A stretch of DNA of 64,000 nucleotides, taken from NCBI RefSeq assembly GCF_041248615.1, contig NZ_CP158426.1, one strand, 5' to 3'. Position 1 is the stretch's first letter. The number at the start of each line of letters is the position of its first letter. The position numbers were made by a program, and so were the translations under genes. Positions 33,072-46,501 of the stretch are shown one piece after another. The notes beneath the pieces were generated by a model. It did no database searches. It was not told the origin of the DNA and saw only the letters and a program-made list of their open reading frames with translations. The DNA is from Escherichia coli. Its GTDB lineage: Bacteria; Pseudomonadota; Gammaproteobacteria; Enterobacterales; Enterobacteriaceae.

Positions 33072-33728
33072 ATGGGGAAACTGAGATACCGTAACCTCGT
33101 TCCCGCTGAAGGAATGAGTAACATGTTTGTCAATATCCGGCTGGCAACCAGCCCGCAGGCAGTGAAGCGCATTGCCGCGCATGTGGGTAAGGAGCTGCGG
33201 CGCGTGAACCAGAGCCGGATGCGCGCCCAGAAAGCGCCGGACGGTTCGGTGTGGACACGCCGTAAACGCCGTATATCACGCCTTCAGGAGCGCATCAGCT
33301 TTATCTGGCAAAACCAGAACCGCACCCTGAAAAACTGGCATCACGGTTCAGGAAAATACGGCCAGACCATCACCGGCTGGGATGAAGACCGGAGCGGCAT
33401 ACGTACCTTTTACCGGAGTGATATCCTCCGTTTCCTTGAAATCAGGACACGCCGCATCAACCGTGACACCACAAAAACGGTGCCGATGTTTGCGAAGCTG
33501 CGCACGGCCCGTTATCTGAAAGTGAAGGCGGACGCATCAGGCGTGACGGTGGGCTACAGCGGCGTGGCGGCACGCATTGCCCGCGTTCACCAGTTCGGGG
33601 AGCGCGACCGGGTGGCCGCAGGGATGTATACGGATTATCCGGCCCGTGAACTTCTTGGAATAACACCGGCAGATGAACGACTTATTCAGCGTATCATTAT
33701 GGACAATATCGCGAGGGCTGTGGCATGA
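33072..33728 (+). CDS. virion morphogenesis / tail completion protein (P2 gpS-like)
   Basis: ORF open from 33072 (SD GGAG); true start may be internal (33114) giving a shorter product. Confidence 0.7.
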   Translation: MGKLRYRNLVPAEGMSNMFVNIRLATSPQAVKRIAAHVGKELRRVNQSRMRAQKAPDGSVWTRRKRRISRLQERISFIWQNQNRTLKNWHHGSGKYGQTITGWDEDRSGIRTFYRSDILRFLEIRTRRINRDTTKTVPMFAKLRTARYLKVKADASGVTVGYSGVAARIARVHQFGERDRVAAGMYTDYPARELLGITPADERLIQRIIMDNIARAVA

Positions 33729-34306
33729 ACGCGGAATTAATGCGCCTTATCAGCAACATCATCAGAACCGGCGTGATTTTCGACGTGAACCCGCAGACCT
33801 GGGAGGTCCGGGTGCGCAGTGGCGGACTGGAGACAGGCTGGCTTCGCTGGAGCACCGCGCGGGCGGGCGCGTTCAGTGTCTGGGTGCCGCCAGCCACCGG
33901 TGAACAGGTGGCGTTCGTCTGTATCGGTGGTAATCCCGAAACCGCGATAATCATCGGCAGCCTCTGGAGCGATGATATCCCGGCACCGGGCAGCACACTG
34001 AAGGAAATCATCATGACAGCACCGGACGGTGCGGTATTCCGCTACGATGCAGACGCCGGTGCACTGGAGGTTAAGGGGATTAAAACAGCCAGCATTCAGG
34101 CCGACACGCGCATCACCCTGGACACGTCGGAGGTGGTGTGTACCCGCAAACTTATCACCGCCACCCTGGAGGTGCAGAACGGCGGCGAGATGCGCGGCAG
34201 CATATCCCACAGCGGCGGCAGCCTGACATCCAACGGTATCACCGTTCATACGCACACCCACGGTGGCGTCAGGACGGGCCCGGGCACCACGGGAGGCCCG
34301 CAATGA
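33725..34306 (+). CDS. baseplate spike protein (P2 gpV-like)
   Basis: 193 aa; ATGA-coupled to gpS. Confidence 0.85.
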   Translation: MNAELMRLISNIIRTGVIFDVNPQTWEVRVRSGGLETGWLRWSTARAGAFSVWVPPATGEQVAFVCIGGNPETAIIIGSLWSDDIPAPGSTLKEIIMTAPDGAVFRYDADAGALEVKGIKTASIQADTRITLDTSEVVCTRKLITATLEVQNGGEMRGSISHSGGSLTSNGITVHTHTHGGVRTGPGTTGGPQ

Positions 34307-34653
34307 CCGCTGTTTACAGGGGGATGAACCCGCAGGGAACCGGCACGCTGAGCGACAGCGAACACCTGAAAAACAGCGTGCGGGATATCCTGACCACACC
34401 GCCAGGCAGCCGGGTGATGCGCCGCGAATACGGCAGCCTGTTACCGGACCTCATCGACGAGCCCATGAACGACACCACGCGTTTACAGTGCATGAGCGCC
34501 ACGGTGACTGCGCTGGCGCGCCATGAACCCCGTATAGCACTGCAGAACGTCGATGTGAACTGGCGGGCTGGCGGACGCGCCGTGGTGACGTTATCCGGCA
34601 TCATCACCGAAACCATGCAGAACATCACATTCAGTATCACCCTGAGGGAGTAA
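34303..34653 (+). CDS. baseplate wedge protein (P2 gpW-like)
   Basis: 116 aa from ATG 34303 overlapping gpV stop. Confidence 0.85.
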   Translation: MTAVYRGMNPQGTGTLSDSEHLKNSVRDILTTPPGSRVMRREYGSLLPDLIDEPMNDTTRLQCMSATVTALARHEPRIALQNVDVNWRAGGRAVVTLSGIITETMQNITFSITLRE

Positions 34654-34656
34654 ATC

Positions 34657-35553
34657 ATGCCTTCCGTTGACCTGTCACAGTTACCGGAACCGGCCATCAT
34701 CGCGCAGCCGGATTTTGAGTCCATCCTGGCAGACATTAAAACCATGATGGTGAGCTCCTTCCCGGAAGAATACCGCGCCGCCGTCACCCGTGCCCTTACT
34801 CTGGAATCCGAGCCATTGAACATCATTTCCCAGGCCATGGCCTTTCGTGAAATGCTGCTTCGCCAGCGCATCAATGAAGCCGCCCGCGCCTGCATGCTCA
34901 GCCACAGCCGGGGCAGTGACCTGGACAATCTGGCCGCCAACAACAACACCCGCCGCCTGGTCATTCATCCGGCCACTGATACCACGGAAGCAGTGATGGA
35001 AAGCGACACATCGCTGCGTCTGCGTGCCCAGTCAGCCTGGGACGGCCTGAGTGTGGCCGGACCGTCCGGCGCGTATGAGTATTTTGCCCGGAGCGCAAGC
35101 GGTCTTGTCCGTGATGCGCGCGCCATCAGCCCGTCACCGGCCACAGTCACCGTCTCCATCCTGTCAGCAGACGGTGACGGCACCGCCGGTGAGGCGTTAC
35201 TGAACACGGTGCGCACCGCCCTGAATGCCGAGAACGTGCGCCCGGTTGCCGACCGCCTGACTGTGCAGAGTGCTACCATCGTGAACTGGGTAATGGAAGC
35301 GAAGCTGTATTTTTATCCAGGGCCGGAGTCTGAACCCATGCTTGCGGCCGCTGACGCCGCTTTCCGTGCATGGCTGGCAGACCAGGGCCGTATCGGTCAG
35401 GACGTGGCCCTGTCAGCCATCACTGCAGCGCTGCATGTTCACGGTGTCCAGCGCGTTGAGGTCATAAAACCCACGCAGAACATCACCATCAGTGACACTC
35501 AGGCAGCCAGATGTACCACATTCAGCATCAGCGAAGGAGGACGCAATGAGTGA
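34657..35553 (+). CDS. baseplate protein (P2 gpJ-like)
   Basis: 298 aa. Confidence 0.85.
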   Translation: MPSVDLSQLPEPAIIAQPDFESILADIKTMMVSSFPEEYRAAVTRALTLESEPLNIISQAMAFREMLLRQRINEAARACMLSHSRGSDLDNLAANNNTRRLVIHPATDTTEAVMESDTSLRLRAQSAWDGLSVAGPSGAYEYFARSASGLVRDARAISPSPATVTVSILSADGDGTAGEALLNTVRTALNAENVRPVADRLTVQSATIVNWVMEAKLYFYPGPESEPMLAAADAAFRAWLADQGRIGQDVALSAITAALHVHGVQRVEVIKPTQNITISDTQAARCTTFSISEGGRNE

Positions 35554-36109
35554 CAGGAAAAAAACAGACAGCGCACAGCACAGTACATCACTGCTTCCAC
35601 CGTCCGCAGGGCCATTCATGCGCGCCACAGAGGCGACAGGAGTACGCATCAGTACCATACCGGTGGACGCCGACACCCTGTGGTCGCCGGACCGCTGCCC
35701 TGCTCACCTCCTGCCCTACCTTGCATGGGCATGTTCCGTTGACAGCTGGGACCGCAACTGGCCGGAAGAGACCAGGCGACAGGTGATTCGGGACGCATGG
35801 ATGATACATCGCCACAAAGGGACCATCAGTGCACTCCGCCGCATCGTTGAACCACTGGGCTACCTCATCCGTGTATCAGAATGGTGGGAGTTTGACGGCT
35901 CGCCCGGGACCTTCACCATTGAGATTGGCACACTTGAAACCGGAGTAAGTGAAGAGCTGCATGAAGAAATGGAGCGTCTGATTGCCGATGCGCGCCCCGT
36001 CAGCCGCCACCTCGTGGGGCTTAGTATCATCCAGGAAATACACGGTGCCATTTACGCCGCTGCCGCAGGTTACGACGGCGACATCATCACCATTTACCCG
36101 GAAGACTGA
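35546..36109 (+). CDS. baseplate protein (P2 gpI-like)
   Basis: 187 aa from ATG 35546 overlapping gpJ stop. Confidence 0.8.
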   Translation: MSDRKKTDSAQHSTSLLPPSAGPFMRATEATGVRISTIPVDADTLWSPDRCPAHLLPYLAWACSVDSWDRNWPEETRRQVIRDAWMIHRHKGTISALRRIVEPLGYLIRVSEWWEFDGSPGTFTIEIGTLETGVSEELHEEMERLIADARPVSRHLVGLSIIQEIHGAIYAAAAGYDGDIITIYPED

Positions 36110-36112
36110 ACC

Positions 36113-38347
36113 ATGAGCACGAGAAAATTCAGAACCCTTATCACCGACATCGGGCTGGCAAAGCTGGCCGCAACAACGGCGCCTGGCGGTAGACCTGTAC
36201 GCCTTACGCACATGGCTGTAGGGGACGGCAATGGAGAGCTTCGTCAGCCGCAGAAAAACCAGACATCGCTTTACAATGAGGTTTGGCGCCAGTCTGTCAA
36301 CCGCGTCTTCACCGACCCGGAGAACCCGAACCGCCTCATCGCCGAACTGGTCATTCCTCCTGAAACCGGCGGATTCTGGGTGCGTGAAATTGGTGTGTTT
36401 GATGATACAGGTACAATGATTGCAGTAGGAAATACCGCTGAAAGTTACAAGCCCACCAGAGAGGAAGGTTCAGGGCGGGCGCAGATATTCCGTGCAGTAA
36501 TCACCGTCACCTCCGACGCCGTGGTGGAACTGGTCATGGACACAACAACAATTCTGCCGACCACGGACTACATTGATGAGAAAATGGCGGAACACGCACG
36601 TTCCCGTAACCACCCTGACGCGACACTGACAGAAAAAGGATTCACCCAACTGAGCAGCGCCACAAACAGCACCTCTGAAACACTGGCCGCCACACCGAAG
36701 GCCGTCAAGGCTGCATATGACCTTGCAGCCGGTAAAGCACCCGCCAGCCACACCCACCCGTGGAATCAGATAACTGGTGTGCCATCAGCCTCGCTGACGG
36801 CAAAAGGCACCGTACAGCTGAGCAGTGCCACAAACAGTGAGTCAGAGACTGAGGCGGCCACCCCCAAAGCGGTTAAAGCCTTACACGATATGGTGACGAG
36901 CAAGTATACAGGACAGGATGCAACCACCGGACGCAAAGGCATCGTACAGCTGAGCAGCGCCACAAACAGCAATTCCGAAACACTGGCGGCCACACCGAAG
37001 GCAGTAAGTGATGCACTGAGCATGGCGTTCGTGAAGCCAACAACATCCCTGGGGGAAACAGACCTGAACACTCTGGGGCGTAAGGAAGACGCGGGAGATT
37101 ATTACCAGCAGAGTGACTCAGGTGCGAGAACAGACAGAAACTATCCTGTAGAGAAGGCAGGAGAGTTACGCATCCGTGTTGGTGCATGGGGATTCTGCCA
37201 GCATGAATACACGAGCTGGGATCCGCCACGAAAATTTATCAGGACAGTTACCGGAAACTTTAACGGTAACGGCCCATGGTCAGAGTGGGTGGAGGTGACA
37301 AACACAGATGCAACAACTGGACGCAAAGGCATCGTACAGCTGAGCAGCGATACAAACAGCAATTCCGAAACGCTGGCGGCCACACCAAGAGCCGTCAAGG
37401 CTGCATATGACCTTGCAGCCGGTAAAGCACCCGCCAGCCACACCCACCCGTGGAATCAGATAACAGGTGTGCCATCAGCCTCGCTGACGGCAAAAGGCAC
37501 CGTACAGCTGAGCAGTGCCACAAACAGTGAGTCAGAGACTGAGGCCGCCACCCCCAAAGCGGTTAAAGCCTTACACGATATGCTGACGAGCAAGTATACA
37601 GGACAGGATGCAACCACCGGACGCAAAGGCATCGTACAGCTAAGCAGCGCCACAAACAGCAATTCCGAAACGCTGGCGGCCACACCAAAAGCTGTTAAAG
37701 CTGCGTATGACCTTGCCAACAGCAAAGCCTCGGCAGCCCACACTCATCGCTGGGCTCAGATCACAGACGCCCCTGTTTTTTCGTCTGTTGCCCGCGTCAT
37801 CATGGGTAAACAAAGCATAAAAGATATTCTTGATTACTTTGGTTTAGGAGAAGGCTCGACGCTGCCAGTTGGCGTACCCGTTCCGTGGCCTTCGTCAAGA
37901 CCACCTGAGGGGTGGTTACAGTGCAACGGTGCCGCATTCACGCGTACAAAATACCCAAAACTGGCGGTGGCCTACCCTGACCTCAGGCTACCAGATTTGC
38001 GCGGGGAATTTATTCGTGGATGGGATGACCTGCGAATGATTGACAGGGGACGCTTATTGTTATCCACACAGGAAGCAACATATATTTGTACCGCCATACA
38101 GGCGTACCACGGCGTAGCGGGAGGTGCAGATATTCAGGCAGGGATTTCATTTGCATCACATGATAACGACATCATAAACATAACCCCTGATCAACCCAGA
38201 ACCGGTAACGGCATCCTGTACGGCACAAAACCAGTTGACAGATGGGCAATAGCCAGAGCCGGTAAGCTGGTGAGTAATGAAAAAGACAGATGGATAGCGA
38301 TCAGACCGCGCAATATCGCTTTTAATTATATTGTGAGGGCAGTTTAA
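36113..38347 (+). CDS. tail fibre protein (P2 gpH-like) with internal repeats
   Basis: 744 aa; repeated 35-aa units (GRKGIVQLSSATNSxSETLAATPKAVKA); divergent lower-GC C-terminal tip. Confidence 0.85.
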   Translation: MSTRKFRTLITDIGLAKLAATTAPGGRPVRLTHMAVGDGNGELRQPQKNQTSLYNEVWRQSVNRVFTDPENPNRLIAELVIPPETGGFWVREIGVFDDTGTMIAVGNTAESYKPTREEGSGRAQIFRAVITVTSDAVVELVMDTTTILPTTDYIDEKMAEHARSRNHPDATLTEKGFTQLSSATNSTSETLAATPKAVKAAYDLAAGKAPASHTHPWNQITGVPSASLTAKGTVQLSSATNSESETEAATPKAVKALHDMVTSKYTGQDATTGRKGIVQLSSATNSNSETLAATPKAVSDALSMAFVKPTTSLGETDLNTLGRKEDAGDYYQQSDSGARTDRNYPVEKAGELRIRVGAWGFCQHEYTSWDPPRKFIRTVTGNFNGNGPWSEWVEVTNTDATTGRKGIVQLSSDTNSNSETLAATPRAVKAAYDLAAGKAPASHTHPWNQITGVPSASLTAKGTVQLSSATNSESETEAATPKAVKALHDMLTSKYTGQDATTGRKGIVQLSSATNSNSETLAATPKAVKAAYDLANSKASAAHTHRWAQITDAPVFSSVARVIMGKQSIKDILDYFGLGEGSTLPVGVPVPWPSSRPPEGWLQCNGAAFTRTKYPKLAVAYPDLRLPDLRGEFIRGWDDLRMIDRGRLLLSTQEATYICTAIQAYHGVAGGADIQAGISFASHDNDIINITPDQPRTGNGILYGTKPVDRWAIARAGKLVSNEKDRWIAIRPRNIAFNYIVRAV
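36640..37700 (+). repeat. near-identical ~330-bp duplication inside the tail fibre gene
   Basis: segments around 36640-36990 and 37300-37690 almost identical at DNA level. Confidence 0.7.
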
Positions 38348-38958
38348 TGAGTAACACTGCAGTTCTGGATGAAAACGGTATCGCCACTTTCGCAGGCGAT
38401 ATCACTGTATATCACTATGATGAGGAAACCCGGGAATACACCTCATCCTCTGTGGAGTATCTCGCCCTGGGGGTGGGTACCCCGGCACATTCATGCGCCG
38501 ATGCCCCGCCAGAGGCAATGCCGGGTTACGTGATTTGCCGGACGTCCACGCTGGACGGGTGGGAGTATGTCCCCGATCATCGTGGAGAGACGGTATACAG
38601 CACAGAGAACGGTAATCCGGTCCAGATTACCCAACCAGGTGACTACCCGGAAGGGACAACGACAAAACAGCCTGCCACACCATGGGATACCTGGAACGGT
38701 GAGGCGTGGGTAACCGATACAGAACGGCAGCAAGCCGAAGAGCTGGAGGTTGCCAGACAGCAACGCAAGGAACGGGTGGATCAGGCGATGAAGTCCATCG
38801 ACCTCATCAACCTTAAGTTGCGGGCAGGTCGCAGTCTGACACCAGAAGAAACGGCAAAACTGAATGCCGTGCTGGATTATATCGACGAGCTGAACGCACT
38901 GGATATCAGCACGGAGCCTGAAATAAGCTGGCCGGAAACACCACCAGAAATGGAATGA
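38347..38958 (+). CDS. tail fibre assembly chaperone (P2 gpG-like)
   Basis: 203 aa; ATG overlaps gpH stop. Confidence 0.8.
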   Translation: MSNTAVLDENGIATFAGDITVYHYDEETREYTSSSVEYLALGVGTPAHSCADAPPEAMPGYVICRTSTLDGWEYVPDHRGETVYSTENGNPVQITQPGDYPEGTTTKQPATPWDTWNGEAWVTDTERQQAEELEVARQQRKERVDQAMKSIDLINLKLRAGRSLTPEETAKLNAVLDYIDELNALDISTEPEISWPETPPEME

Positions 38959-39028
38959 GCGGGGAAAAGGAACGGGCATTCATAAATAATTCATCATGCA
39001 GGTGCCGCAAGAATGCGGCACATTACCT

Positions 39029-39517
39029 TCACATCAGATCATTTACGCCGCTTACTGTGGTATTCCAGACCGAACTTAACTTCCCTTTCATTCCCGAAAG
39101 CATATCAGACACCGGCGACGAGGCCATACTCTCCCGCAAATCCTCATCACAGCGTTCCAGACTGACAGTGAACTCAATTTTTTTGGCCTTACCGTGGCGG
39201 TCAAGTTCGCTTCGCGTTGTGCGGACAGCCGTTATCACATACATGCCGTATATCTGCCCCACACCGTCAATCAGCGGCCATGGGCGACCAGTGTAAGCCT
39301 GCGTCGTTAAAAGGCTGAGGGAAACCTCACCGCCGGTAATTTCGGGATAAAGCACACCGGACAACGTGATCTGGTCGTCACCCGCCCCGATATACTGCCA
39401 GCTGGCCGAACGATTGATGCGTTCATTTTTAACGTGGCGCCAGGTTTTATTATGTTGCAGTTGTTGATGAGGCAGCGTACGCAACTCAAAAACAAACATG
39501 CCGTAAATCATCATCAT
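39029..39517 (-). CDS. tail protein (P2 gpU-like)
   Basis: 162 aa; last gene of the reverse-oriented tail block. Confidence 0.8.
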   Translation of the reverse strand: MMMIYGMFVFELRTLPHQQLQHNKTWRHVKNERINRSASWQYIGAGDDQITLSGVLYPEITGGEVSLSLLTTQAYTGRPWPLIDGVGQIYGMYVITAVRTTRSELDRHGKAKKIEFTVSLERCDEDLRESMASSPVSDMLSGMKGKLSSVWNTTVSGVNDLM

Positions 39518-39528
39518 GCGAGGTACTC

Positions 39529-42500
39529 CTAATCTCTGTCACGGAAACTACCGACTGTCTGGCGGATACGGCGTTCCATTTCCGCACGGACGGCATCACC
39601 CACCATTTTTGCCAGTTCGCGCGGGTTTTGCGTGTGAACATCATGCAGGTGAATATGCAGTTCGCCAGTTAATCCCCATGGTGCCGGCTCACTCTGGCGC
39701 GGTCGGGGCGATGCGGGGGATATGGGCTGGCGCACAGCCTCAACCACCGGACGGGATGTTGCCGCCATCACTGGTGTCATTAGCGGGGAGAACGTCGGCA
39801 TGACATCGTGAGTCATAACCGGTTTGATCACCGGCGGAACCACTGGCGTAATATTACCGGACAGTACCGGACGGACGACCGGAGGAATAACCGGCACATT
39901 ATTCACGGACACCACCGGCTTCACGACCGGCGACACGTTCGCCGTGGTGGATATCAGCGGCGAAACACTGACAGGCGGTGGCGCTGGCAGCGGTGGCAAC
40001 GAAGGCACACTGACCGACGGCACCTGCGGCAGTCTGACAGGTGGCTCACTGACACTACCCGGTAACAGGGAAGCTGCTCGGTTAAAGCGTTCCTCCTTCC
40101 ACTCACCACGAACGGCCAGCGCTTCCGGCAGGTTTTTAAAGATAATATCGCCGGGACCAGCGCGTTTTTTCGCCTGTTTCGCCTCATCCAGCAGACCACC
40201 GGTGTTATCGACGATTTTGTTCAGGCGGCGCATAGTGCCGGTATTCTCCCCCGTCAGGGGTGGTTGCCCCCCTTTGGGTTTTTCGCCGTCTTTTTTATCC
40301 TCGTCCTTTTTCGGCGGATTAATGACGTTAACATCCGCCAGAAGCATGGCAGCTTTCTCGTTCAGCAACTCCTTCTGTTTTAGTTCTTCCGCCTTTTTCC
40401 GGGCGCGCTCAACCGCCGACGGAATCAGCCCGAGTTTTTCCAGCACCCGGGTTAATGAGTCAATCAGCAGCGTAACCGGACCGGTCACCAGATTGCTGAT
40501 AAACTCCCCTACCTTCTGCCCGAACGTACGCCCGGCTTCCGTGCACTTGTCCAGCTCATCCTTTGTTGTGCTTACCGGCGCGAACAAATCCACGAACCAC
40601 TGCCACACACGCCCGATTGTCTGCCCGACATACTCAAACAGCGGTCCCAGTGGTGCCACAGCCTCGCGCAGTGGCGTAAGCCCCTGCCACAGGCCGGACA
40701 AGAACCCGCCCACGACAGCCTTCAGCTGGTCCCAGTGCCGCCAGATAAGCACTGCCGCACCGACCAGTGTCGCCACCACAAGGCCCACCGGACTTAACAG
40801 AAAACCCAGCGCCCCGCCAAGTGCGCCCACCGCACCACTCACCATCCCCCACAGTGCGGGCAGACCTGACAGTCTGAGCGCCAGTATTCCGATACCGCGC
40901 CCCAGTGAAATCAGTGCGCCGCCAGGTGAAGTGAACGCAGCCAGCAGACCACCACGCAGCGCGCCAAGTCCCGCCTGCACACCACGAAGCCGCCCCGCAA
41001 CTACGCCCAGCAGTGCAGCAAACCGTCCGGCACCGGAGGTGATACCGACAAACAGCACGCGCCAGCCACCGATACCGCCCAGCGGACCACCGAGTACGCC
41101 GCGCAGCTGCGTCAGTAACGGCAGCGCACGACCGAGGCCGGATGTGCCGGTCAGCAGGGCAAACCCAAGACGCAGTTTTGCCAGCGGCCCCATCAACACA
41201 CCAGTGGCAAGTGACAGCGCCCCCATGGCCGCAACCGCAGCCAGCAGTACACCACCGGCAATCAGCAGTTGTTTTGTCAGTTCAGGGTGCGCCTGAGCCA
41301 GCGCGGTGACTTTCGCAATAACCCGGGTGAACGACTGCGTGACAGAACGCAGCGGCCCGTCAACGAGGTCAGCGACACGGATACGCAGTCCTTCCCATGC
41401 GCTGTTCAGTGATTTCAGGTCACCGTCCAGGTTATCAGCCATAACACGGGCAGTGTGATTAAGTTCCCCGGTGGCCAGTTCAATCTCCTGCGTAAGACGG
41501 GGAAGATTATTTTCCCCCGCCGCAGTGACAAGATTCATCAGGGAAACATAGGACTCCTGCCCGGCAATAGCCCTGAAAAAGGAGACCTGCGCGGCATTAC
41601 CGTATTTTCGGGTGGCCTGGTACAGCTCATTCAGGATATTTTCCATCCGGCGCATGTTCCCGTAAGCATCCTGCGTCTCCACGCCAAGCTCTTTCAGTGC
41701 CATTGCAGCGGCCTTCGGCGGATCAACCAGACGTGACAGACTGGCACGCAGCGCCGTACCTGCATCACTTCCACGGATCCCCACACTGCCAAGGACACCC
41801 GTCATGGCTGCCGCCTGTTCAAGGGACAGGCCAAGTGAAGCTGCAACCGGACCCGTGTACTTCATGGTTTCACCCAGTGAACGGAGATCCGTATTGGTTC
41901 GTGTGAAGGTGGCGGCCAGCGTGTCACCCACGCGATCCATCTGGTCAGCGGACAGACCAAACTGTGTGAGGATATTCGAACTGATATCGGCAGTCTGTCC
42001 CAGGTCCATCCCTGCAGCCATTGCCAGATCAAGCACGCCGGGTAGCGCCGCCTGTATGGCCTGTGGTGTGAAGCCGGCCATGGCAAGGAACGCCTGACCG
42101 CTGGCAGCATCACCGGCGGTAAACTGCGTTTCAGAGCCCAGCTTAATGGCCTGTTCGCGCAGCGCCTTAAACTGCGGACTGTTTTTGTCAATACGGGTCA
42201 GCGCCTGGACGCGTGACATCTCCTTACCAAAACTGACCGCCGGTTGCAGGAAACGTCCGGCCGCATAGCCGCCTGCCGCCGCCGTACCAACCGCCGTAAG
42301 TCCGACCGTTTTAAGTTTTCCCGCCGTCTCCTGAGCACGGGAATATTGCTGGCGTGCCTGCGTGACACGTGCCAGCGCCTGCCGTTCGCGTTCCAGCTGG
42401 TCGTTGTATTGCTGTGTTCGCCGTATGGCCTGTTGAATGGTGTTGTCACTGCCGGAAAGCGCAATACCGTGGCGCCGCAGCTCACCACCCAGTTCGCGCA

Positions 42501-42840
42501 TTCGCTGAACTTCACGCGCACGGACCTCATTGAGACGCTCAAGTTTGAGGCTCAAATCGTTCATCAGCTTTTTCTGTTTGTCAGACAGCACGGTTCCGGC
42601 GCGCTGAATTTGCTGAAGTGCGCTTAACTGGCGTTGCGCCCTGACAATGCCGTTTCCGGCCTTGTTTGCAGCCTCGCGGGCGCGATCAAATGAACGGGCG
42701 TAGCGTTCCAGGTTTTTGATCGCACCCTGCGTTCTCTGTATGGAGTCGCCAAGCTGGCCCATCATGCGACGGGCGTTTTCGGTGGGACGGGTCAGCCTGT
42801 CAACAGCGCTGAAGGCGACCCGTATATCAAGCGTTTTCAT
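39529..42840 (-). CDS. tail tape measure protein (P2 gpT-like)
   Basis: 1103 aa from ATG 42838-42840; coiled-coil/Ala-Gly-rich core; Pro/Val-rich C-terminus. Confidence 0.85.
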   Translation of the reverse strand: MKTLDIRVAFSAVDRLTRPTENARRMMGQLGDSIQRTQGAIKNLERYARSFDRAREAANKAGNGIVRAQRQLSALQQIQRAGTVLSDKQKKLMNDLSLKLERLNEVRAREVQRMRELGGELRRHGIALSGSDNTIQQAIRRTQQYNDQLERERQALARVTQARQQYSRAQETAGKLKTVGLTAVGTAAAGGYAAGRFLQPAVSFGKEMSRVQALTRIDKNSPQFKALREQAIKLGSETQFTAGDAASGQAFLAMAGFTPQAIQAALPGVLDLAMAAGMDLGQTADISSNILTQFGLSADQMDRVGDTLAATFTRTNTDLRSLGETMKYTGPVAASLGLSLEQAAAMTGVLGSVGIRGSDAGTALRASLSRLVDPPKAAAMALKELGVETQDAYGNMRRMENILNELYQATRKYGNAAQVSFFRAIAGQESYVSLMNLVTAAGENNLPRLTQEIELATGELNHTARVMADNLDGDLKSLNSAWEGLRIRVADLVDGPLRSVTQSFTRVIAKVTALAQAHPELTKQLLIAGGVLLAAVAAMGALSLATGVLMGPLAKLRLGFALLTGTSGLGRALPLLTQLRGVLGGPLGGIGGWRVLFVGITSGAGRFAALLGVVAGRLRGVQAGLGALRGGLLAAFTSPGGALISLGRGIGILALRLSGLPALWGMVSGAVGALGGALGFLLSPVGLVVATLVGAAVLIWRHWDQLKAVVGGFLSGLWQGLTPLREAVAPLGPLFEYVGQTIGRVWQWFVDLFAPVSTTKDELDKCTEAGRTFGQKVGEFISNLVTGPVTLLIDSLTRVLEKLGLIPSAVERARKKAEELKQKELLNEKAAMLLADVNVINPPKKDEDKKDGEKPKGGQPPLTGENTGTMRRLNKIVDNTGGLLDEAKQAKKRAGPGDIIFKNLPEALAVRGEWKEERFNRAASLLPGSVSEPPVRLPQVPSVSVPSLPPLPAPPPVSVSPLISTTANVSPVVKPVVSVNNVPVIPPVVRPVLSGNITPVVPPVIKPVMTHDVMPTFSPLMTPVMAATSRPVVEAVRQPISPASPRPRQSEPAPWGLTGELHIHLHDVHTQNPRELAKMVGDAVRAEMERRIRQTVGSFRDRD

Positions 42841-43045
42841 GCTCTGCGTTCCCGCTGCGAAGGGCCGCCCGCTCACGCCAGGCGACCACCTCGCCGGGAT
42901 CCATCAGGAAGATTTCAGCGGGAGACCAGTTGAAAATAACGGCGATATCCGCCACAAAGTCTTCAATGTGCTCAAAGGGCACGACGGTTATCAGCCTGCC
43001 GTCGCCGCCCCGCTCTTCCCGCCAGAGTCCTGACCGGCCAAAAAA
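42827..43045 (-). CDS. gpE' extension reached by programmed -1 frameshift
   Basis: slippery TTTTTTG (plus-strand 43039-43045); -1 frame open until a stop overlapping the gpT start. Confidence 0.5.
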   Translation of the reverse strand, partial: FFGRSGLWREERGGDGRLITVVPFEHIEDFVADIAVIFNWSPAEIFLMDPGEVVAWRERAALRSGNAEHENA

Positions 43046-43353
43046 TTAACCGCCACCCCGCACAGCTGAATAAAATCAGCGGACCCCATGCGCTTAAGCA
43101 GAACCTCGTCCAGTCGCGGCGAAGTGACGCGCGGGAGTAACTCAAACATCGCGTCCGTTTTCATGTTCAGCACGTCAAGCAGTGACAGCCCGCGCAGTGA
43201 ACCGGCCTGCTGTACAGCAGGCGTGATTTCCACATACGTGATTTTTTTGTTACCGAGCACAAGGGGCGTTTTCAGCGTCACGCCGCGCTCACTGGTCACG
43301 TCCGCCGCATCAGCACCGTCAGTAACAGGGGCAACAACCGGATTTTCTTTCAT
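42991..43353 (-). CDS. tail assembly chaperone (P2 gpE-like)
   Basis: 120 aa; slippery heptamer TTTTTTG near 3' end. Confidence 0.75.
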   Translation of the reverse strand: MKENPVVAPVTDGADAADVTSERGVTLKTPLVLGNKKITYVEITPAVQQAGSLRGLSLLDVLNMKTDAMFELLPRVTSPRLDEVLLKRMGSADFIQLCGVAVNFLAGQDSGGKSGAATAG

Positions 43354-43403
43354 GCATAAAACCTCAAATCAGGGGGCGACGCCGCGCGCCGCCGTGGGAA
43401 ACA

Positions 43404-43922
43404 TTAACCACCAAGACCAATCGCCGAGCGCACGCGGTCCGGGAAGACGTTTTTGCCGTCCTTGCGTTCGATGTGGTTCAGTAAATCAATCTCCAGCACC
43501 GGACGGTCGTTAATGCTGAGTTTGTAGTAGGTACTCCTGACCGCATAGGTGTGAGACGTGACCTCACCCTGTTTTGCCTCCCCCGTATCAATTTCCGTCA
43601 CGCGGCCGCGAAGCTCAATTTCATACAGGTCGCTCTGCTCTTCATCGTTGTAGTACTCACCGACAAAGCGCAGCAGCGTACCGTCGATCGTGCCGCCGTA
43701 CTTAAGGAACAGTTCGCGGGTCGGCCCGCCCATGGTGAAACTCGCATCCAGCGCGCCGTCATCCAGACCAAGGTCGATATTCACCGCGCCGGCCATACCA
43801 CCACCGCGATAGGCTTCCGTTTTACGGGTCAGTTTGGGGGGCGTGAAGCCGGTCACCCTGCCAATCTGGTTCACCCCGTCAGTAAACAGCGTGAACACCC
43901 TGAGATTTTTTGGTACGGCCAT
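43404..43922 (-). CDS. tail tube protein (P2 gpFII-like)
   Basis: 172 aa; conserved KLTRK and EIDTGE regions. Confidence 0.85.
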   Translation of the reverse strand: MAVPKNLRVFTLFTDGVNQIGRVTGFTPPKLTRKTEAYRGGGMAGAVNIDLGLDDGALDASFTMGGPTRELFLKYGGTIDGTLLRFVGEYYNDEEQSDLYEIELRGRVTEIDTGEAKQGEVTSHTYAVRSTYYKLSINDRPVLEIDLLNHIERKDGKNVFPDRVRSAIGLGG

Positions 43923-45205
43923 TAAGCACCTCCAAGCGTCGCAAATGCAGGACCAAAGAATTCATCAGTAAACGCCTGGTAAAGTTCCATATCCTCAAGC
44001 GGCGGAACGGGCGTGTACTTGTAGCGGATACGCACGCGTCCCTGACGAAGTTCCGTGGTGCTGTTATCCACCACGTCATACCAGCACTCCGCACCAATGA
44101 GACGTCCTGACGTAACCAGCGCATCCAGTTTTGCGCGAATTGCGCTTAACACGTCTTTCACATTAGCAGGGGTCAGCGGGGCATCAATCGTTTCAAACTG
44201 CGCTTCCGCAATGGAATCAGCCAGCACCTGAGCGGTTCGCGTGTACACCTCAAAGATATACGCCTTCGTTTCCGGCGTACGGTTGCCCCAGAAGCGGAAA
44301 CCGTTACGGCAAATGATGGTAGTGATTTCCTTGTTGTTGAGATTGTTGGCATCGCTGTCTTCGGACTGAAGGGACCAGAACACCGGGCTGGAAATACCCA
44401 GCACATTTCTTACCGGCACGTTGGACAGCGATTTATGCCAGCCCTGTTCGTGGTCAATACGTGCACGTAAACCGCAGGCGTACGCCGCAGCCGGGAAGAC
44501 CTCATTAGCGCCGGATTTCGGGTTATGGGCGATGAAGTCCGGCCAGACCAGCATAAGTTCGCGCTCGTTAAATCTGGCGCGGTAGCTGATTGCATCGGCG
44601 GGCTTCTTGCAGTTGTGACAGCCCGCGTAGACAAATGCGCGAAGTTTTTCTGCAATTACACACAGGGATTTTGTGACAGCTTCAGTATCCAGTCCGGGAG
44701 CTGCGATGATGCGCGGACGGTAACCGATGGCATCATCCTGTTCAGCTATCAGAAGTGCATACATACCGGTATAATTACCGTCGCCATCCGTGCCACCAAT
44801 GACATACTGGTCCTGCGTTTTGTGTGGGTATACAGGATGTGCATCTTCAGACTCATCAATACCAAAAAATGCCCTGTCTTCAGGATCCAGATGACCGAAT
44901 GATGTAACTCCTGTATCCGGGGCGCCCTGAGAACTGGCATCAGGAACGCGCACCACAATCACCTTCGTGCTCACCTGGTCGGCGACAGCCTTAAGCGATT
45001 TGTAAAGCGTCCCCTTTGTGCCGGCCTTACCCAGCACATCACTGACGCGGGTCAGCAGTGTGGGTTTGTTCAGCGGGAACAGAGTTTCATCCGCGTCATC
45101 TGCCGTAGCCACAATACCAATAACACTGGAATCCACATCATTAATGGCGGTGGCAAGGCCGGTACTTTCCCTTACGCGCGCACCATGAAAGCGTGTTTCA
45201 CTCAT
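43922..45205 (-). CDS. tail sheath protein (P2 gpFI-like)
   Basis: 427 aa from ATG 45203-45205 (MSETRFHGARV); track ORF start at 45352 is an unsupported extension. Confidence 0.85.
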   Translation of the reverse strand: MSETRFHGARVRESTGLATAINDVDSSVIGIVATADDADETLFPLNKPTLLTRVSDVLGKAGTKGTLYKSLKAVADQVSTKVIVVRVPDASSQGAPDTGVTSFGHLDPEDRAFFGIDESEDAHPVYPHKTQDQYVIGGTDGDGNYTGMYALLIAEQDDAIGYRPRIIAAPGLDTEAVTKSLCVIAEKLRAFVYAGCHNCKKPADAISYRARFNERELMLVWPDFIAHNPKSGANEVFPAAAYACGLRARIDHEQGWHKSLSNVPVRNVLGISSPVFWSLQSEDSDANNLNNKEITTIICRNGFRFWGNRTPETKAYIFEVYTRTAQVLADSIAEAQFETIDAPLTPANVKDVLSAIRAKLDALVTSGRLIGAECWYDVVDNSTTELRQGRVRIRYKYTPVPPLEDMELYQAFTDEFFGPAFATLGGA

Positions 45206-45278
45206 ATGTTTCACCCTTGTCTGGCTGGTTGATTTTGCGTAATCATTACCCACACACGCGGTAATCTCACCCCTTTGA

Positions 45279-45302
45279 TGTTGTCTCCTGACAGCGACAA
45301 CA
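45279..45302. promoter_or_regulatory. Ogr-type late-promoter dyad between divergent gpFI and gpD
   Basis: TGTTGTCTCCTGACAGCGACAACA; centre about 85 and 76 bp from the two start codons. Confidence 0.5.
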
Positions 45303-45366
45303 AAACAGCCATTCAACGCCGCTGCGGTGCATGAAACCATTACAGAACGCACCAGGAGAGAACACC

Positions 45367-46458
45367 ATGAAAGAGCTGTCAGTTACCGTTCCGTCACCGG
45401 ATATCGACATCACCATCAACAACAACACACTGGCAAACCTCACAGAGCGACTCATGACGCTGACCCTGACGGATAACCGGGCCTTTGAGGCAGACCGCGT
45501 CACCCTCACCCTTGACGATACGGACGGGCAGTTACAGTTGCCACCACGTGGCGCACGCCTGAGAGTGATGATTGGCTGGCGAGGAGAATCACTGGTTAAC
45601 AAGGGCACCTACGTCGTTGATGAGGTTGCGTGGGAAGGACCTCCAGATAAACTGATCATCACCGCCAGCAGCGCAGATTTTCGGGAAGAGTTCAACGTGA
45701 GGCGGGAGGTATCCTGGCACGACGTGACCGTAAAACAGGTTGTGTCAGCCATCGCTCACCGCTACGGCCTGAAGACACAGATAAGCGAAATCCTCATGGA
45801 TATCGAAATTGACCACGCTGACCAGACCGAAGAGAGCGATATATCCTTCCTGACCCGCATGGCTGAAATGCTGGGTGCGATTGCCACCGTAAAAAACGGC
45901 AGCCTGTTATTCATTCTGCCGGGTGGCGGAACCGGGCCGGACGGAAGAGCCCTGCCTTCGTTCGCCATTACCCGCAGCAGCGGCGACAGTCACCGCTTTC
46001 GCATTGCTGACCGTGATGCGTATACGGGGGTCCGGGCGCACTGGCTCGATCTGAAGTTCGGGCACAAGAAAAAAGTGAACGTGAAGCGACGCAGGGAAGC
46101 CGGGAAACAGAAACAGGAGAAGAGCAGCAGCCGGGAGGGTGATTACATGGAAGGCGCGGAAGGGAACGTCTACGTTCTGCGCAGGACTTACCAGAATGAA
46201 GAAACCGCACGACGTGCAGCTGCGGCAAAGTGGCAGGAGTTACAGCGGGGAGCAGCGGCATTCTCCATCACTCTGGCACGGGGTCGTGCCGACCTGTATC
46301 CCGAAATGCACGGCAGGGTAACAGGTTTTAAAAGCGAGGTGGACAATCAGGACTGGATTATTGCCAGGGTGGAGCACATCATAGATGAAAGCGGCTTCAC
46401 CACACAACTGGAGCTGGAAGCGAAAATCCCCGAATGGATAGCAGATTCAGGCGGATAA
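45367..46458 (+). CDS. tail protein D (P2 gpD-like)
   Basis: 363 aa from ATG 45367 with SD AGGAGAG; N-terminus MKELSVTVPSPD. Confidence 0.8.
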   Translation: MKELSVTVPSPDIDITINNNTLANLTERLMTLTLTDNRAFEADRVTLTLDDTDGQLQLPPRGARLRVMIGWRGESLVNKGTYVVDEVAWEGPPDKLIITASSADFREEFNVRREVSWHDVTVKQVVSAIAHRYGLKTQISEILMDIEIDHADQTEESDISFLTRMAEMLGAIATVKNGSLLFILPGGGTGPDGRALPSFAITRSSGDSHRFRIADRDAYTGVRAHWLDLKFGHKKKVNVKRRREAGKQKQEKSSSREGDYMEGAEGNVYVLRRTYQNEETARRAAAAKWQELQRGAAAFSITLARGRADLYPEMHGRVTGFKSEVDNQDWIIARVEHIIDESGFTTQLELEAKIPEWIADSGG

Positions 46459-46501
46459 AATTAAAATGAGCCATCTCCACTCAGCCAGATAAGGAGAAGC
46501 C

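Follow-up and report, generated by a model that had tools for sequence, protein, structure and literature searches.

The window (the whole 64,000-nucleotide stretch of Escherichia coli DNA that was analysed) carries a P88-like (P2-related) prophage with a complete gene set, in which all phage genes other than T are annotated as intact except for one small hypothetical gene. The tail genes lie on the minus strand in the order FI, FII, E, E′, T, U, which is the same as in P2, and the features relevant here are the following:

39029..39517, minus strand: gpU-like tail protein, directly downstream of T (ORF; RefSeq 'phage tail protein'; T-U order as in P2)
39529..42840, minus strand: gene T, tail tape measure protein (TMP), an intact ORF of 1103 aa plus stop
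39532..39684, minus strand: conserved 51-aa C-terminal peptide of T, residues 1053-1103 (alternating-pattern GELHIHLHDV, then a helix)
39685..40068, minus strand: Pro/Val-rich repeat tract, residues 925-1052, read as the expanded linker of the C-terminal module (from composition, shuffles and periodicity)
39751..39894, minus strand: three tandem 16-aa units, PVIPPVVRPVLSGNIT, PVVPPVIKPVMTHDVM and PTFSPLMTPVMAATSR (from pairwise unit comparison)
39760..39766, minus strand: junction, at residue ~1026, of extra in-frame repeat blocks in related prophages (from protein and DNA alignments)
40090..40158, minus strand: conserved motif GPGDIIFKNLPEALAVRGEWKEE, residues 895-917, the N-terminal edge of the linker (most invariant alignment columns)
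40864..41124, minus strand: 87 residues (~573-659; alignment columns 591-677) of the Gly/Ala/Leu-rich hydrophobic region, without counterpart in P88 T
41560..42159, minus strand: PhageMin_Tail (PF10145) domain, T residues ~228-427 (Pfam match, made on the 1115-aa ORF, whose numbering is offset by 12 residues from that of the 1103-aa protein)
42827..43353, minus strand: gpE / gpE′ tape-measure chaperone pair, directly upstream of T (ORFs 42991-43353 and 42827-42982; arrangement identical in P2)

The T protein scores far above the cut-offs of two tape measure families, PF10145 (180.1 bits, cut-off 33.2) and TIGR01760 (tape_meas_TP901; 262.2 bits, cut-off 28.8), and phrog_28, 'tail length tape measure protein', matches it with E = 1e-181. 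It aligns collinearly with P2 T, 186 G and P88 T, and as befits a tape measure gene it has the chaperone pair (one ORF of which RefSeq names 'GpE family phage tail protein') and the tube and sheath genes directly upstream. The open frame reaches upstream to a GTG at 42876 (39529..42876, uninterrupted, 1115 codons); the start used by RefSeq, in the 100% identical gene of E. coli B771, is the ATG at 42840, giving 1103 aa. Kyte-Doolittle analysis (19-residue windows ≥1.5) finds hydrophobic, transmembrane-like segments at residues 520-554, 595-615 and 663-703, and similar segments are present in the T proteins of P2, 186, P88 and a Klebsiella phage. An antisense ORF at 39824-41296 (490 aa, Gly/Thr/Ser/Pro-rich) has no family match and was taken to be a by-product of the GC-rich coding strand.

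Near the end of T lies a tract of 128 residues that includes 32 prolines and 27 valines (25% and 21%, respectively), while the rest of the protein is 3.3% Pro and 6.5% Val (binomial tail 3e-26); the richest 128-residue stretch of T has a Pro plus Val count of 60, and the maximum in 2000 shuffles of the whole protein was 35. The tract is also a true repeat beyond its compositional bias: when it is shifted by 16 residues against itself, its identity exceeds that of composition-preserving shuffles with z = 5.5, the other significant offsets being 12 and 32, and a proline spacing of 8-3-1-4 recurs along it. The first-pass annotation, which had described ~130 residues of Pro/Val-rich repeats, was thus right about both composition and repetition. 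It had placed them at the very C-terminus, which is incorrect, since the tract is sub-terminal and is followed by 51 residues (39532-39684) of ordinary composition that relatives conserve.

The three tandem 16-aa units have prolines at positions 1, (4), 5 and 9 and contain only one aromatic residue among them. Pairwise they share 4-11 of 16 residues and 40-81% of their nucleotides, and identical residues are encoded by different synonymous codons in about half of the cases. In the window, Tandem Repeats Finder picks up no more than a weak 12-bp array, and with it and a second repeat finder the tract shows just weak spacings of 12-48 bp. These spacings and the low nucleotide identity of the units led us to reject recent DNA slippage as the origin of the repeats; in the window allele the units are old at the DNA level.

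The T protein is 1103 aa long, or about 117 kDa at full length, and those of P2 and 186 are 815 and 812 aa, which bears out the earlier estimate of ~1100 against ~815 aa. The genes for P2 gpT and 186 gpG, the classical tape measures of the Peduovirus/Eganvirus type, occupy the same operon position (after E/E′ and before U), and their homology to T is collinear over the first ~890 residues at 29-31% identity, but they end where an extra module begins, so that ~200 further residues here have no P2 counterpart. P2/186-type T genes are tightly conserved in length (matches span 2430-2445 nt even when identity falls to 48%), whereas P88-type T proteins vary from 919 to 1238 aa. The module consists of the motif GPGDIxFKNLPxALAVRGEW, then a linker, then the 51-aa terminal peptide; it is common to P88-like and Klebsiella relatives and absent in P2 and 186. 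Both landmarks of the P88-type (Xuanwuvirus/Reipivirus-like) module, the motif and a terminal peptide of ~50 aa that ends in an S-F-R-D-R-D-like sequence, are present here, and conservation of the terminal peptide extends over P88, Klebsiella and Salmonella to more distant relatives. The earlier suggestion of an added domain therefore holds for the ~200-aa module as a whole relative to P2 and 186; the tract itself, judged from these alignments, is best described as the module's expanded linker and not as a terminal extension.

Is the length of this linker unusual? Measured with the motif GPGDIIFKNLPEALAVRGEWKEE as landmark, it comes to 139 aa here, and each of the 40 other sequences measured falls at 37-61 aa. 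The motif-to-end segment (207 aa, compared with 105-129 aa in the family) is the only part of T that falls outside the family range; the N-core, hydrophobic and middle segments all fall within it. A profile search of 1.84 billion proteins found the module in 51 cluster representatives, one of them a spurious eukaryotic match, and every full-length true match retrieved is a TMP of 919-1043 aa. Relatives with a T of equal length, which together with normal tails would, according to the first-pass annotation, have made the extra residues unremarkable, did not appear among them. By these sequence measurements, and counting the sister alleles below, the tract is 2-5 times longer than in any relative found.

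Apart from this family the module has few matches. The last 223 residues matched nothing in Pfam (E ≤ 1), a PDB profile search was likewise negative (E ≤ 1), an NCBIfam search gave TIGR01760 alone, and two PHROGs of 'unknown function' are the sole PHROG cover of the module. We considered whether P2 and 186 encode it as a separate small protein (fusion or fission) and rejected this, as all tblastn matches to nt 1-30000 of P2 and to the 186 tail region had E > 0.5. A metal site at HIHLH was also rejected: relatives have FNLVFN, FELNFY or VVNVTV at that position, so only the alternating pattern is conserved.

P88 (Xuanwuvirus) provides the closest well-defined comparison. Its T is 68% identical overall and has the identical order of segments (N-terminal coiled region, PF10145, hydrophobic region, middle, motif, Pro/Val/Ala-rich linker, terminal peptide), but it is 935 aa long rather than 1103, with a linker of 61 aa rather than 139. 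About half of the excess over P88 is due to an 87-aa longer hydrophobic region, which is common to many relatives; within the family it comes in two length classes, 36-50 aa and 109-132 aa, and it measures 126 aa here and 39 aa in P88. This second source of T length had been overlooked in the first-pass annotation.

Near-identical prophages have still longer linkers, 216 aa in strain CM2 (T = 1180 aa) and also in CS5L and 23CRST011, and 281 aa in Br_112_kylling (T = 1238 aa). The 139-aa allele of the window is likewise carried by B771 and SCU-115. Relative to the window, CM2 has 231 bp (77 aa) more at the junction, in frame, and this indel is bounded by two ~40-nt direct repeats that encode AA(I/T)SRPV(L/V)EAVR. 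Br_112_kylling has a further 195-bp tandem duplication (195-bp period, 2.3 copies, 95% match), which is more recent than the repeats of the window. The terminal peptide stays in frame downstream of the tract in all three alleles, and over their last 204 codons the window and CM2 genes are separated by 4 synonymous and 2 non-synonymous changes. Few genomes carry the expanded lineage, 27 of 5426 complete ones (8 of the 27 records are identical in lengths and possibly represent one strain), and poultry appears to be over-represented as their source; the P88-type T gene is present in ~1390 complete E. coli genomes. A word-indexed protein search yielded mainly fragments, as annotation tends to split or pseudogenise these genes, and it was such fragments that uncovered the 216-aa allele.

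The tract has a proline about every four residues, which rules out α-helix, and AlphaFold2 predicts no secondary structure for it (pLDDT ~41-67); the model, a monomer run with a 20-sequence alignment, has a mean pLDDT of 56. The same low-confidence monomer model shows no contact between the motif and the terminal peptide, such as would make them one domain with the tract as a loop, and as secondary structure only two helices, that at residues 1073-1096 with pLDDT 77-87. The tract is probably an extended or disordered non-helical spacer, although the repeats may adopt a trimeric or hexameric fold.

Our preferred reading, which we hold to be somewhat better than an even proposition, is that the tract is an in-frame, translated segment of T, a linker expanded through repeats that tethers a hub anchor and likely adds to tail length. 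A short flexible linker would have grown as a 16-residue unit, its prolines in fixed register, was amplified in tandem, and unequal recombination between higher-order blocks of 65-77 aa would have lengthened it further, giving linkers of 139, 216 or 281 aa in near-identical prophages. Where the tract would lie in the virion, and how it might affect tail length, we infer from other phages. The C-terminal loops of the T4 TMP are located at the hub and distal tube end, and its C-terminal part is the first to be exposed after contraction (10.64898/2026.03.06.709160); in phiTE, C-terminal TMP residues touch hub proteins (PMC11972413). If T behaves like T4 gp29 and the TMPs of phiTE and TP901-1, its terminal peptide would anchor the tape at the baseplate hub, the starting point of tube polymerisation, and the C-terminal end of T would be the first to exit the tube upon contraction. 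The tract would then be the tether that joins the hub anchor to the ruler body, and since the hub and tube lumen would have to make room for it, it most likely renders the tape, and hence the tail, somewhat longer.

Rough physical arguments and one electron microscopy (EM) comparison of other phages suggest that any such lengthening is modest. In that one study the tail of P88 (T of 935 aa, which has the module with its linker of 61 aa) was 137-140 nm long and that of pro147 (T of 815 aa, no module) 130-131 nm; each value is a single estimate given without an error, and the paper's text and legend disagree by 1-3 nm. The gain of 6-10 nm for 120 extra residues is less than the ~18 nm expected from the helical rule (0.15 nm per residue), so the module could be largely buried in the hub and contribute little. 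Our rough estimate is that the tract most likely adds ~8-12 nm over a P88-type linker, with steps of similar slope predicted for the 216- and 281-aa linkers, and that the long hydrophobic region may add a further ~13 nm, for a roughly estimated tail of ~155-165 nm compared with the 137-140 nm of P88. Literature searches for EM data on other P88-like or Klebsiella relatives gave genomic papers only.

Is the tract measured at all? It could be a length-neutral spacer, folded or coiled within the hub cavity and first tube rings, with the helical T body alone setting the length; tails would then equal those of relatives with the same long hydrophobic region, and changes in copy number would be effectively neutral. 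The ~127 terminal residues of the TP901-1 TMP do not count toward tail length (PMC5099701), the 129-aa C-terminal module of P88 accompanies just 6-10 nm of extra tail relative to pro147, and a linker that varies freely among near-identical prophages, from 139 to 281 aa, fits weak constraint. However, the mass of three to six such chains (139-281 residues each) comes to 46-185 kDa (a rough estimate from assumed dimensions), which exceeds the capacity of a gp27-like hub cavity, so some of the tube lumen would have to be occupied, and proline-rich chains tend toward expanded rather than compact states. On balance we consider a length-neutral tract rather unlikely.

A less probable alternative is that the tract is a protease-accessible linker at which the terminal peptide, with or without the tract, is cut off during or after tail assembly, so that the mature tape lacks the tract. 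The precedent is phage λ, whose gpH is trimmed to gpH*, and the unstructured state predicted by AlphaFold2 would suit such a site. We know of no processing of P2-type T proteins, neither a protease motif nor conservation of a cleavage site was seen, and the strong conservation of the terminal peptide argues against its removal, though a role in assembly only would fit that as well. We regard processing as decidedly improbable.

RefSeq flags T as a pseudogene, and its annotation ends at residue 732; the frame runs on beyond that point, so the flag appears to be an annotation artefact. It is carried by every expanded allele inspected, unlike the P88-type T genes that were checked, and the protein is consequently missing from RefSeq proteomes; prophage-completeness calls for strains with an expanded allele will be wrong. 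That T is a decaying, no longer functional gene of a defective prophage and the tract slippage junk is very improbable: the RefSeq label 'incomplete; missing C-terminus' in expanded-allele genomes and a 10-nt deletion and frameshift within the tract in one genome would agree with it, but at least 12 genome records, which come from chickens and humans in several countries, share the open 1103-codon frame at 100% identity, the 1180- and 1238-aa alleles are open with every indel in frame and the conserved terminal peptide still in frame, and the other phage genes are annotated as intact but for the one small hypothetical.

Recombination among the repeats of the tract might shift tape length in steps of 65-77 residues within a single phage lineage; we advance the idea of such a tunable Pro/Val block only tentatively. 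It would imply a natural tail-length polymorphism or a variable periplasmic 'reach' of the first-ejected C-terminus toward the inner membrane, and the variation could be selected through differences in host envelope. It would also imply that a non-helical segment counts in tail-length measurement, with an nm-per-residue value of its own. The ruler model of tail-length control rests on helical TMPs, at ~0.15 nm per residue. The series of 61-, 139-, 216- and 281-residue alleles, non-helical and proline-rich and found in otherwise similar or near-identical E. coli prophages, thus lends itself to testing whether and how a non-helical segment is measured and how much of the hub-proximal tape of a myophage is buried.

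Proline-rich extended linkers occur elsewhere in E. coli, in the proline-rich region of TonB, the OmpA hinge and the linkers of lipoyl domains. The tract resembles these in being rich in proline, in excluding helix and in favouring an extended, semi-rigid chain; the likeness is one of analogy and not homology (no Pfam match at E ≤ 1), and on that analogy one can speculate that the tract spans the periplasm. A proline-rich segment is also present in the TMP of another contractile-tail E. coli phage, T4 gp29, where it lies between the N-terminal coiled coil and a transmembrane segment, whereas the tract here adjoins the C-terminus (10.64898/2026.03.06.709160). We found no sequence similarity between the T4 gp29 proline-rich region and the tract, and copy-number variation is unreported for T4. 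In the T4 model the TMP exits the tube C-terminus first and forms a conduit at the inner membrane (10.64898/2026.03.06.709160). The TMPs of TP901-1 and the mycobacteriophages likewise contain tandem repeats open to duplication and deletion; deletions in that of TP901-1 change tail length linearly, by 0.145 nm per residue, and its C-terminal 60 residues are essential (PMC5099701). Their repeats have periods of 11 and 18 residues with aromatic markers and are taken as α-helical, whereas the tract has a period of 16, is marked by proline (offsets 11 and 18 are insignificant) and is non-helical. The TP901-1 repeats lie within the ruler body, and the tract directly precedes the putative terminal anchor.

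The reading frame of the tape measure gene T (1103 aa when read from the RefSeq ATG at 42840) matches PF10145 (180 bits, cut-off 33), TIGR01760 (262 bits, cut-off 28.8) and phrog_28 (E = 1e-181), and it lies in a P2-type tail block whose minus-strand order is sheath, tube, E, E', T, U. The DNA of this T gene occurs with 100% identity in several complete E. coli chromosomes. The T-bearing prophage of strain B771 is P2-like, ~34 kb long and situated between serS and dmsA; its integrase, cox, repressor-like, replication, portal, terminase, capsid, lysis, baseplate, fibre and tail genes carry intact annotations, the one exception in the prophage being a small hypothetical. Among described phages, P88 and its relatives (Xuanwuvirus, Peduoviridae) are the closest, with ~68% protein identity to T. 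The features discussed below are as follows:

39529-42876, minus strand: T open frame, 1115 codons, with the Pro/Val tract toward its 3' end
40801-41178 (T residues ~555-680): Gly/Ala/Leu hydrophobic region in its long form (P88 has the short form)
39685-40068, minus strand: Pro/Val tract, T residues 925-1052, with 32 Pro and 27 Val in 128 residues
39751-39894, minus strand: three clear 16-aa units, PVIPPVVRPVLSGNIT, PVVPPVIKPVMTHDVM and PTFSPLMTPVMAATSR, used for unit comparison
39532-39684, minus strand: terminal peptide, 51 residues of ordinary composition, conserved among relatives
39824-41296, plus strand: open frame antisense to T, 490 codons, with a Gly/Thr/Ser/Pro-rich translation

The antisense frame, for which Pfam and NCBIfam searches gave no family match, most likely exists only because the coding strand is GC-rich. 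Elsewhere in the prophage (window ~33700-46500, and also B771 locus L001), the U-T-E'-E-FII-FI block is inverted relative to V-W-J-I-H-G, with D and ogr beyond FI, whereas in P2 FI-FII-E-T-U-D-ogr are collinear. In P88 a DNA invertase adjoins the fibre genes; the fibre region of the window prophage has no annotated invertase. Tail fibre gene H (36113-38347, plus strand) contains a ~90-aa internal repeat (TGRKGIVQLSSATNSNSETLAATPKAVKAAYDLAAGKAPASHTHPWNQITGVPSASLTAKGTVQLSSATNSESETEAATPKAVKALHDM...) in several copies and has a strain-dependent length (2235 nt in B771, 2439 nt in CM2). In B771 the prophage edge on the ogr side holds a Hok/Gef family toxin gene and a small hypothetical gene (L007 4435-4575, between serS and the ogr end). 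Citrobacter phage Shae_phiSM (OR565851), whose T is 67.5% identical to the window T, has a P88-like genome; the published description of PhiSM is of a siphovirus whose long tail is non-contractile (PMC6456863), which is odd for a relative of a contractile-tailed phage.

The first-pass annotation had described a Pro/Val-rich repetitive C-terminus, and the enrichment is real and periodic, but it is not terminal, as the 51-residue peptide follows it. Outside the tract T has 3.3% Pro and 6.5% Val (binomial tail for the tract 3e-26), and its best 128-residue window holds 60 P+V, against a maximum of 35 across 2000 shuffles of the protein. Residue identity at offset 16 reaches z = 5.5, and a proline spacing of 8-3-1-4 recurs. 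The 16-aa units are only 40-81% identical in nucleotides, and about half of their identical-residue codons differ synonymously; by this sequence measure the units are old, and because of that age and divergence Tandem Repeats Finder reports almost nothing in the window.

The contrast in size noted earlier (~1100 versus ~815 aa) holds, P2 T being 815 aa and 186 G 812 aa, but where does the extra length reside? Alignment of the window T with the T proteins of P88 (935 aa), a Klebsiella phage (995 aa) and P2 and with 186 G shows that all P88-like proteins have an additional C-terminal module relative to P2 and 186, consisting in order of a helix, the motif GPGDIxFKNLPxALAVRGEW, a linker and a terminal peptide of the form GEIHVHLHxVxTQNPRELAxxVGxAVRAEMxR...GSFRDRD. 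The suggested "added domain" is borne out in part by this module, whose expanded linker is the tract. No counterpart of the module was found in P2 (nt 1-30000) or the 186 tail region, and no relatives were found by Pfam, NCBIfam or PDB searches. The His-rich segment HIHLH was considered as a conserved metal site and rejected, since relatives have FNLVFN or VVNVTV there and only the alternating pattern is kept. The window T is 168 aa longer than P88 T (hydrophobic region +87 aa, linker +78 aa); the long hydrophobic region makes up half of that difference.

Segment lengths of family T proteins, divided at conserved landmarks
N-terminal core: family 554-568 aa; window 554 aa
Hydrophobic region: family 36-50 or 109-132 aa (bimodal); window 126 aa, the common long form
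Middle region: family 207-231 aa; window 216 aa
Motif to end: family 105-129 aa; window 207 aa

This comparison shows that the Pro/Val expansion is unusual for the family and the hydrophobic insertion is not. Judged by sequence, T plainly belongs to the tape measure family and, within it, to the P88-type subgroup, from which it departs in linker length. A module profile searched against 1.84 billion cluster representatives gave only 51 hits (including one spurious eukaryotic protein of 1811 aa), and every full-length true hit retrieved was a tape measure protein of 919-1043 aa. The linker is 139 aa in the window and 37-61 aa in 40 of the 40 other sequences measured; among 5426 complete E. coli genomes, ~1390 have the short P88-type form and 27 an expanded form.

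Expanded T alleles in complete E. coli genomes
Window type: linker 139 aa; T 1103 aa; 22 records
CM2 type: linker 216 aa; T 1180 aa; CM2, CS5L and 23CRST011
Br_112_kylling: linker 281 aa; T 1238 aa; 1 strain
Strain 135: linker frameshifted; T truncated; 1 strain

The window and CM2 genes differ by one in-frame 231-bp indel between two ~40-nt direct repeats encoding AA(I/T)SRPV(L/V)EAVR, a signature of unequal recombination between repeat copies, and Br_112_kylling further carries a tandem array with a 195-bp period (2.3 copies, 95% match). Upstream of the module there is another short variable linker (40270-40330, T residues ~844-860), reading KKDEDKKDGEKPKGGQPP in the window and QNDKDKKPPVPAPAATAP in CM2 within near-identical surroundings. 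Where a host or source is stated for the expanded-allele genomes, chicken or chicken meat is the most frequent, and several are human isolates; eight of the records share an identical length (5,067,659 bp) and may be one strain deposited repeatedly.

With a proline at about every fourth residue the tract is incapable of forming alpha-helix. AlphaFold2 (T residues 864-1103, monomer, 20-sequence alignment) predicts no more than two helices, one at residues 869-892 and one at 1073-1096 (pLDDT 77-87 for the second), and a tract without secondary structure (pLDDT ~41-67). Tape measure proteins are trimers or hexamers inside the tube, so this monomer prediction is weak evidence. In T4 the C-terminal loops of gp29 lie at the baseplate hub and distal tube end, and after contraction its C-terminal part is the first to become exposed, gp29 later forming an inner-membrane conduit; gp29 also has a proline-rich segment, but at another place in the chain (10.64898/2026.03.06.709160). 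C-terminal residues of the phiTE protein contact hub proteins (PMC11972413), and the C-terminal 60 residues are essential in TP901-1 (PMC5099701). By analogy with these three phages, the conserved 51-aa peptide would be a hub anchor and the tract a tether joining it to the ruler body.

Would such a tether lengthen the tail? TP901-1 deletions shorten the tail by 0.145 nm per residue, with ~127 terminal residues not counted (PMC5099701). The P88 tail is 137-140 nm and that of pro147 130-131 nm, values from one laboratory without error estimates (PMC5285337); pro147 has an 815-aa T with 98% identity to P2 T. The gain in P88 is 6-10 nm for 120 extra residues, below the helical-rule prediction. By rough reasoning, three to six chains of 139-281 residues would have too much mass for the hub cavity, and proline-rich chains in a narrow lumen would tend toward an extended form, so that some added tube length seems required. 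We therefore think that the tract probably, though far from surely, adds at least one tube ring; a spacer that is neutral for length is a distinctly less likely reading. That the tract is a processing site is improbable; in phiTE, the six-fold to three-fold symmetry change suggests processing of the tape measure protein (PMC11972413). If the linker alone is counted in P88, ~0.10-0.16 nm per residue would give roughly 8-12 nm more for the 139-aa allele. The size class of the hydrophobic region could itself alter tail length under a ruler model, the long form contributing perhaps up to ~13 nm more if helical. The predicted tail for the window allele is ~155-165 nm, and the 216- and 281-aa alleles should give longer ones still.

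That T is a dead gene is very improbable, even though RefSeq/PGAP calls it a pseudogene ("incomplete; missing C-terminus") in all of the expanded-allele genomes inspected, spanning only the first ~732 codons in B771 (L001 7117-9312) and CM2 (L006 5348-7543). Apart from strain 135, all of these have an uninterrupted frame of 1103-1238 codons, and we regard the flag as an annotation artefact for that reason. The indels among the three expanded alleles (1103, 1180 and 1238 aa) are in frame, with the conserved terminal peptide still in frame downstream, and the last 204 codons of window and CM2 differ by 4 synonymous and 2 non-synonymous changes. In strain 135 (L008 3201-3992) the allele is 10 nt shorter across the 802-nt query and the frame breaks in a poly-proline coding stretch of the tract (...SVSVPSLQRHRLSVFRR, then stop), which is either a genuine inactivating slip or an error of assembly. 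The 3' portion of T is annotated in some genomes as a hypothetical protein of its own. RefSeq proteomes consequently lack the full protein, and the expanded alleles expose a systematic mis-annotation.

These alleles are chiefly valuable as a natural experiment, already at hand, on how the ruler works. Our literature search found no described proline-registered, non-helical, copy-number-variable block located immediately ahead of the hub anchor in a myophage tape measure. Length change driven by repeats is already known in TP901-1 and mycobacteriophage tape measures, and for TP901-1 repeats are considered to favour duplication and deletion naturally (PMC5099701). The repeats of those proteins, however, are taken to be helical, are marked by aromatic residues and lie in the ruler body, whereas the window tract is proline-registered, non-helical and placed before the putative hub anchor.
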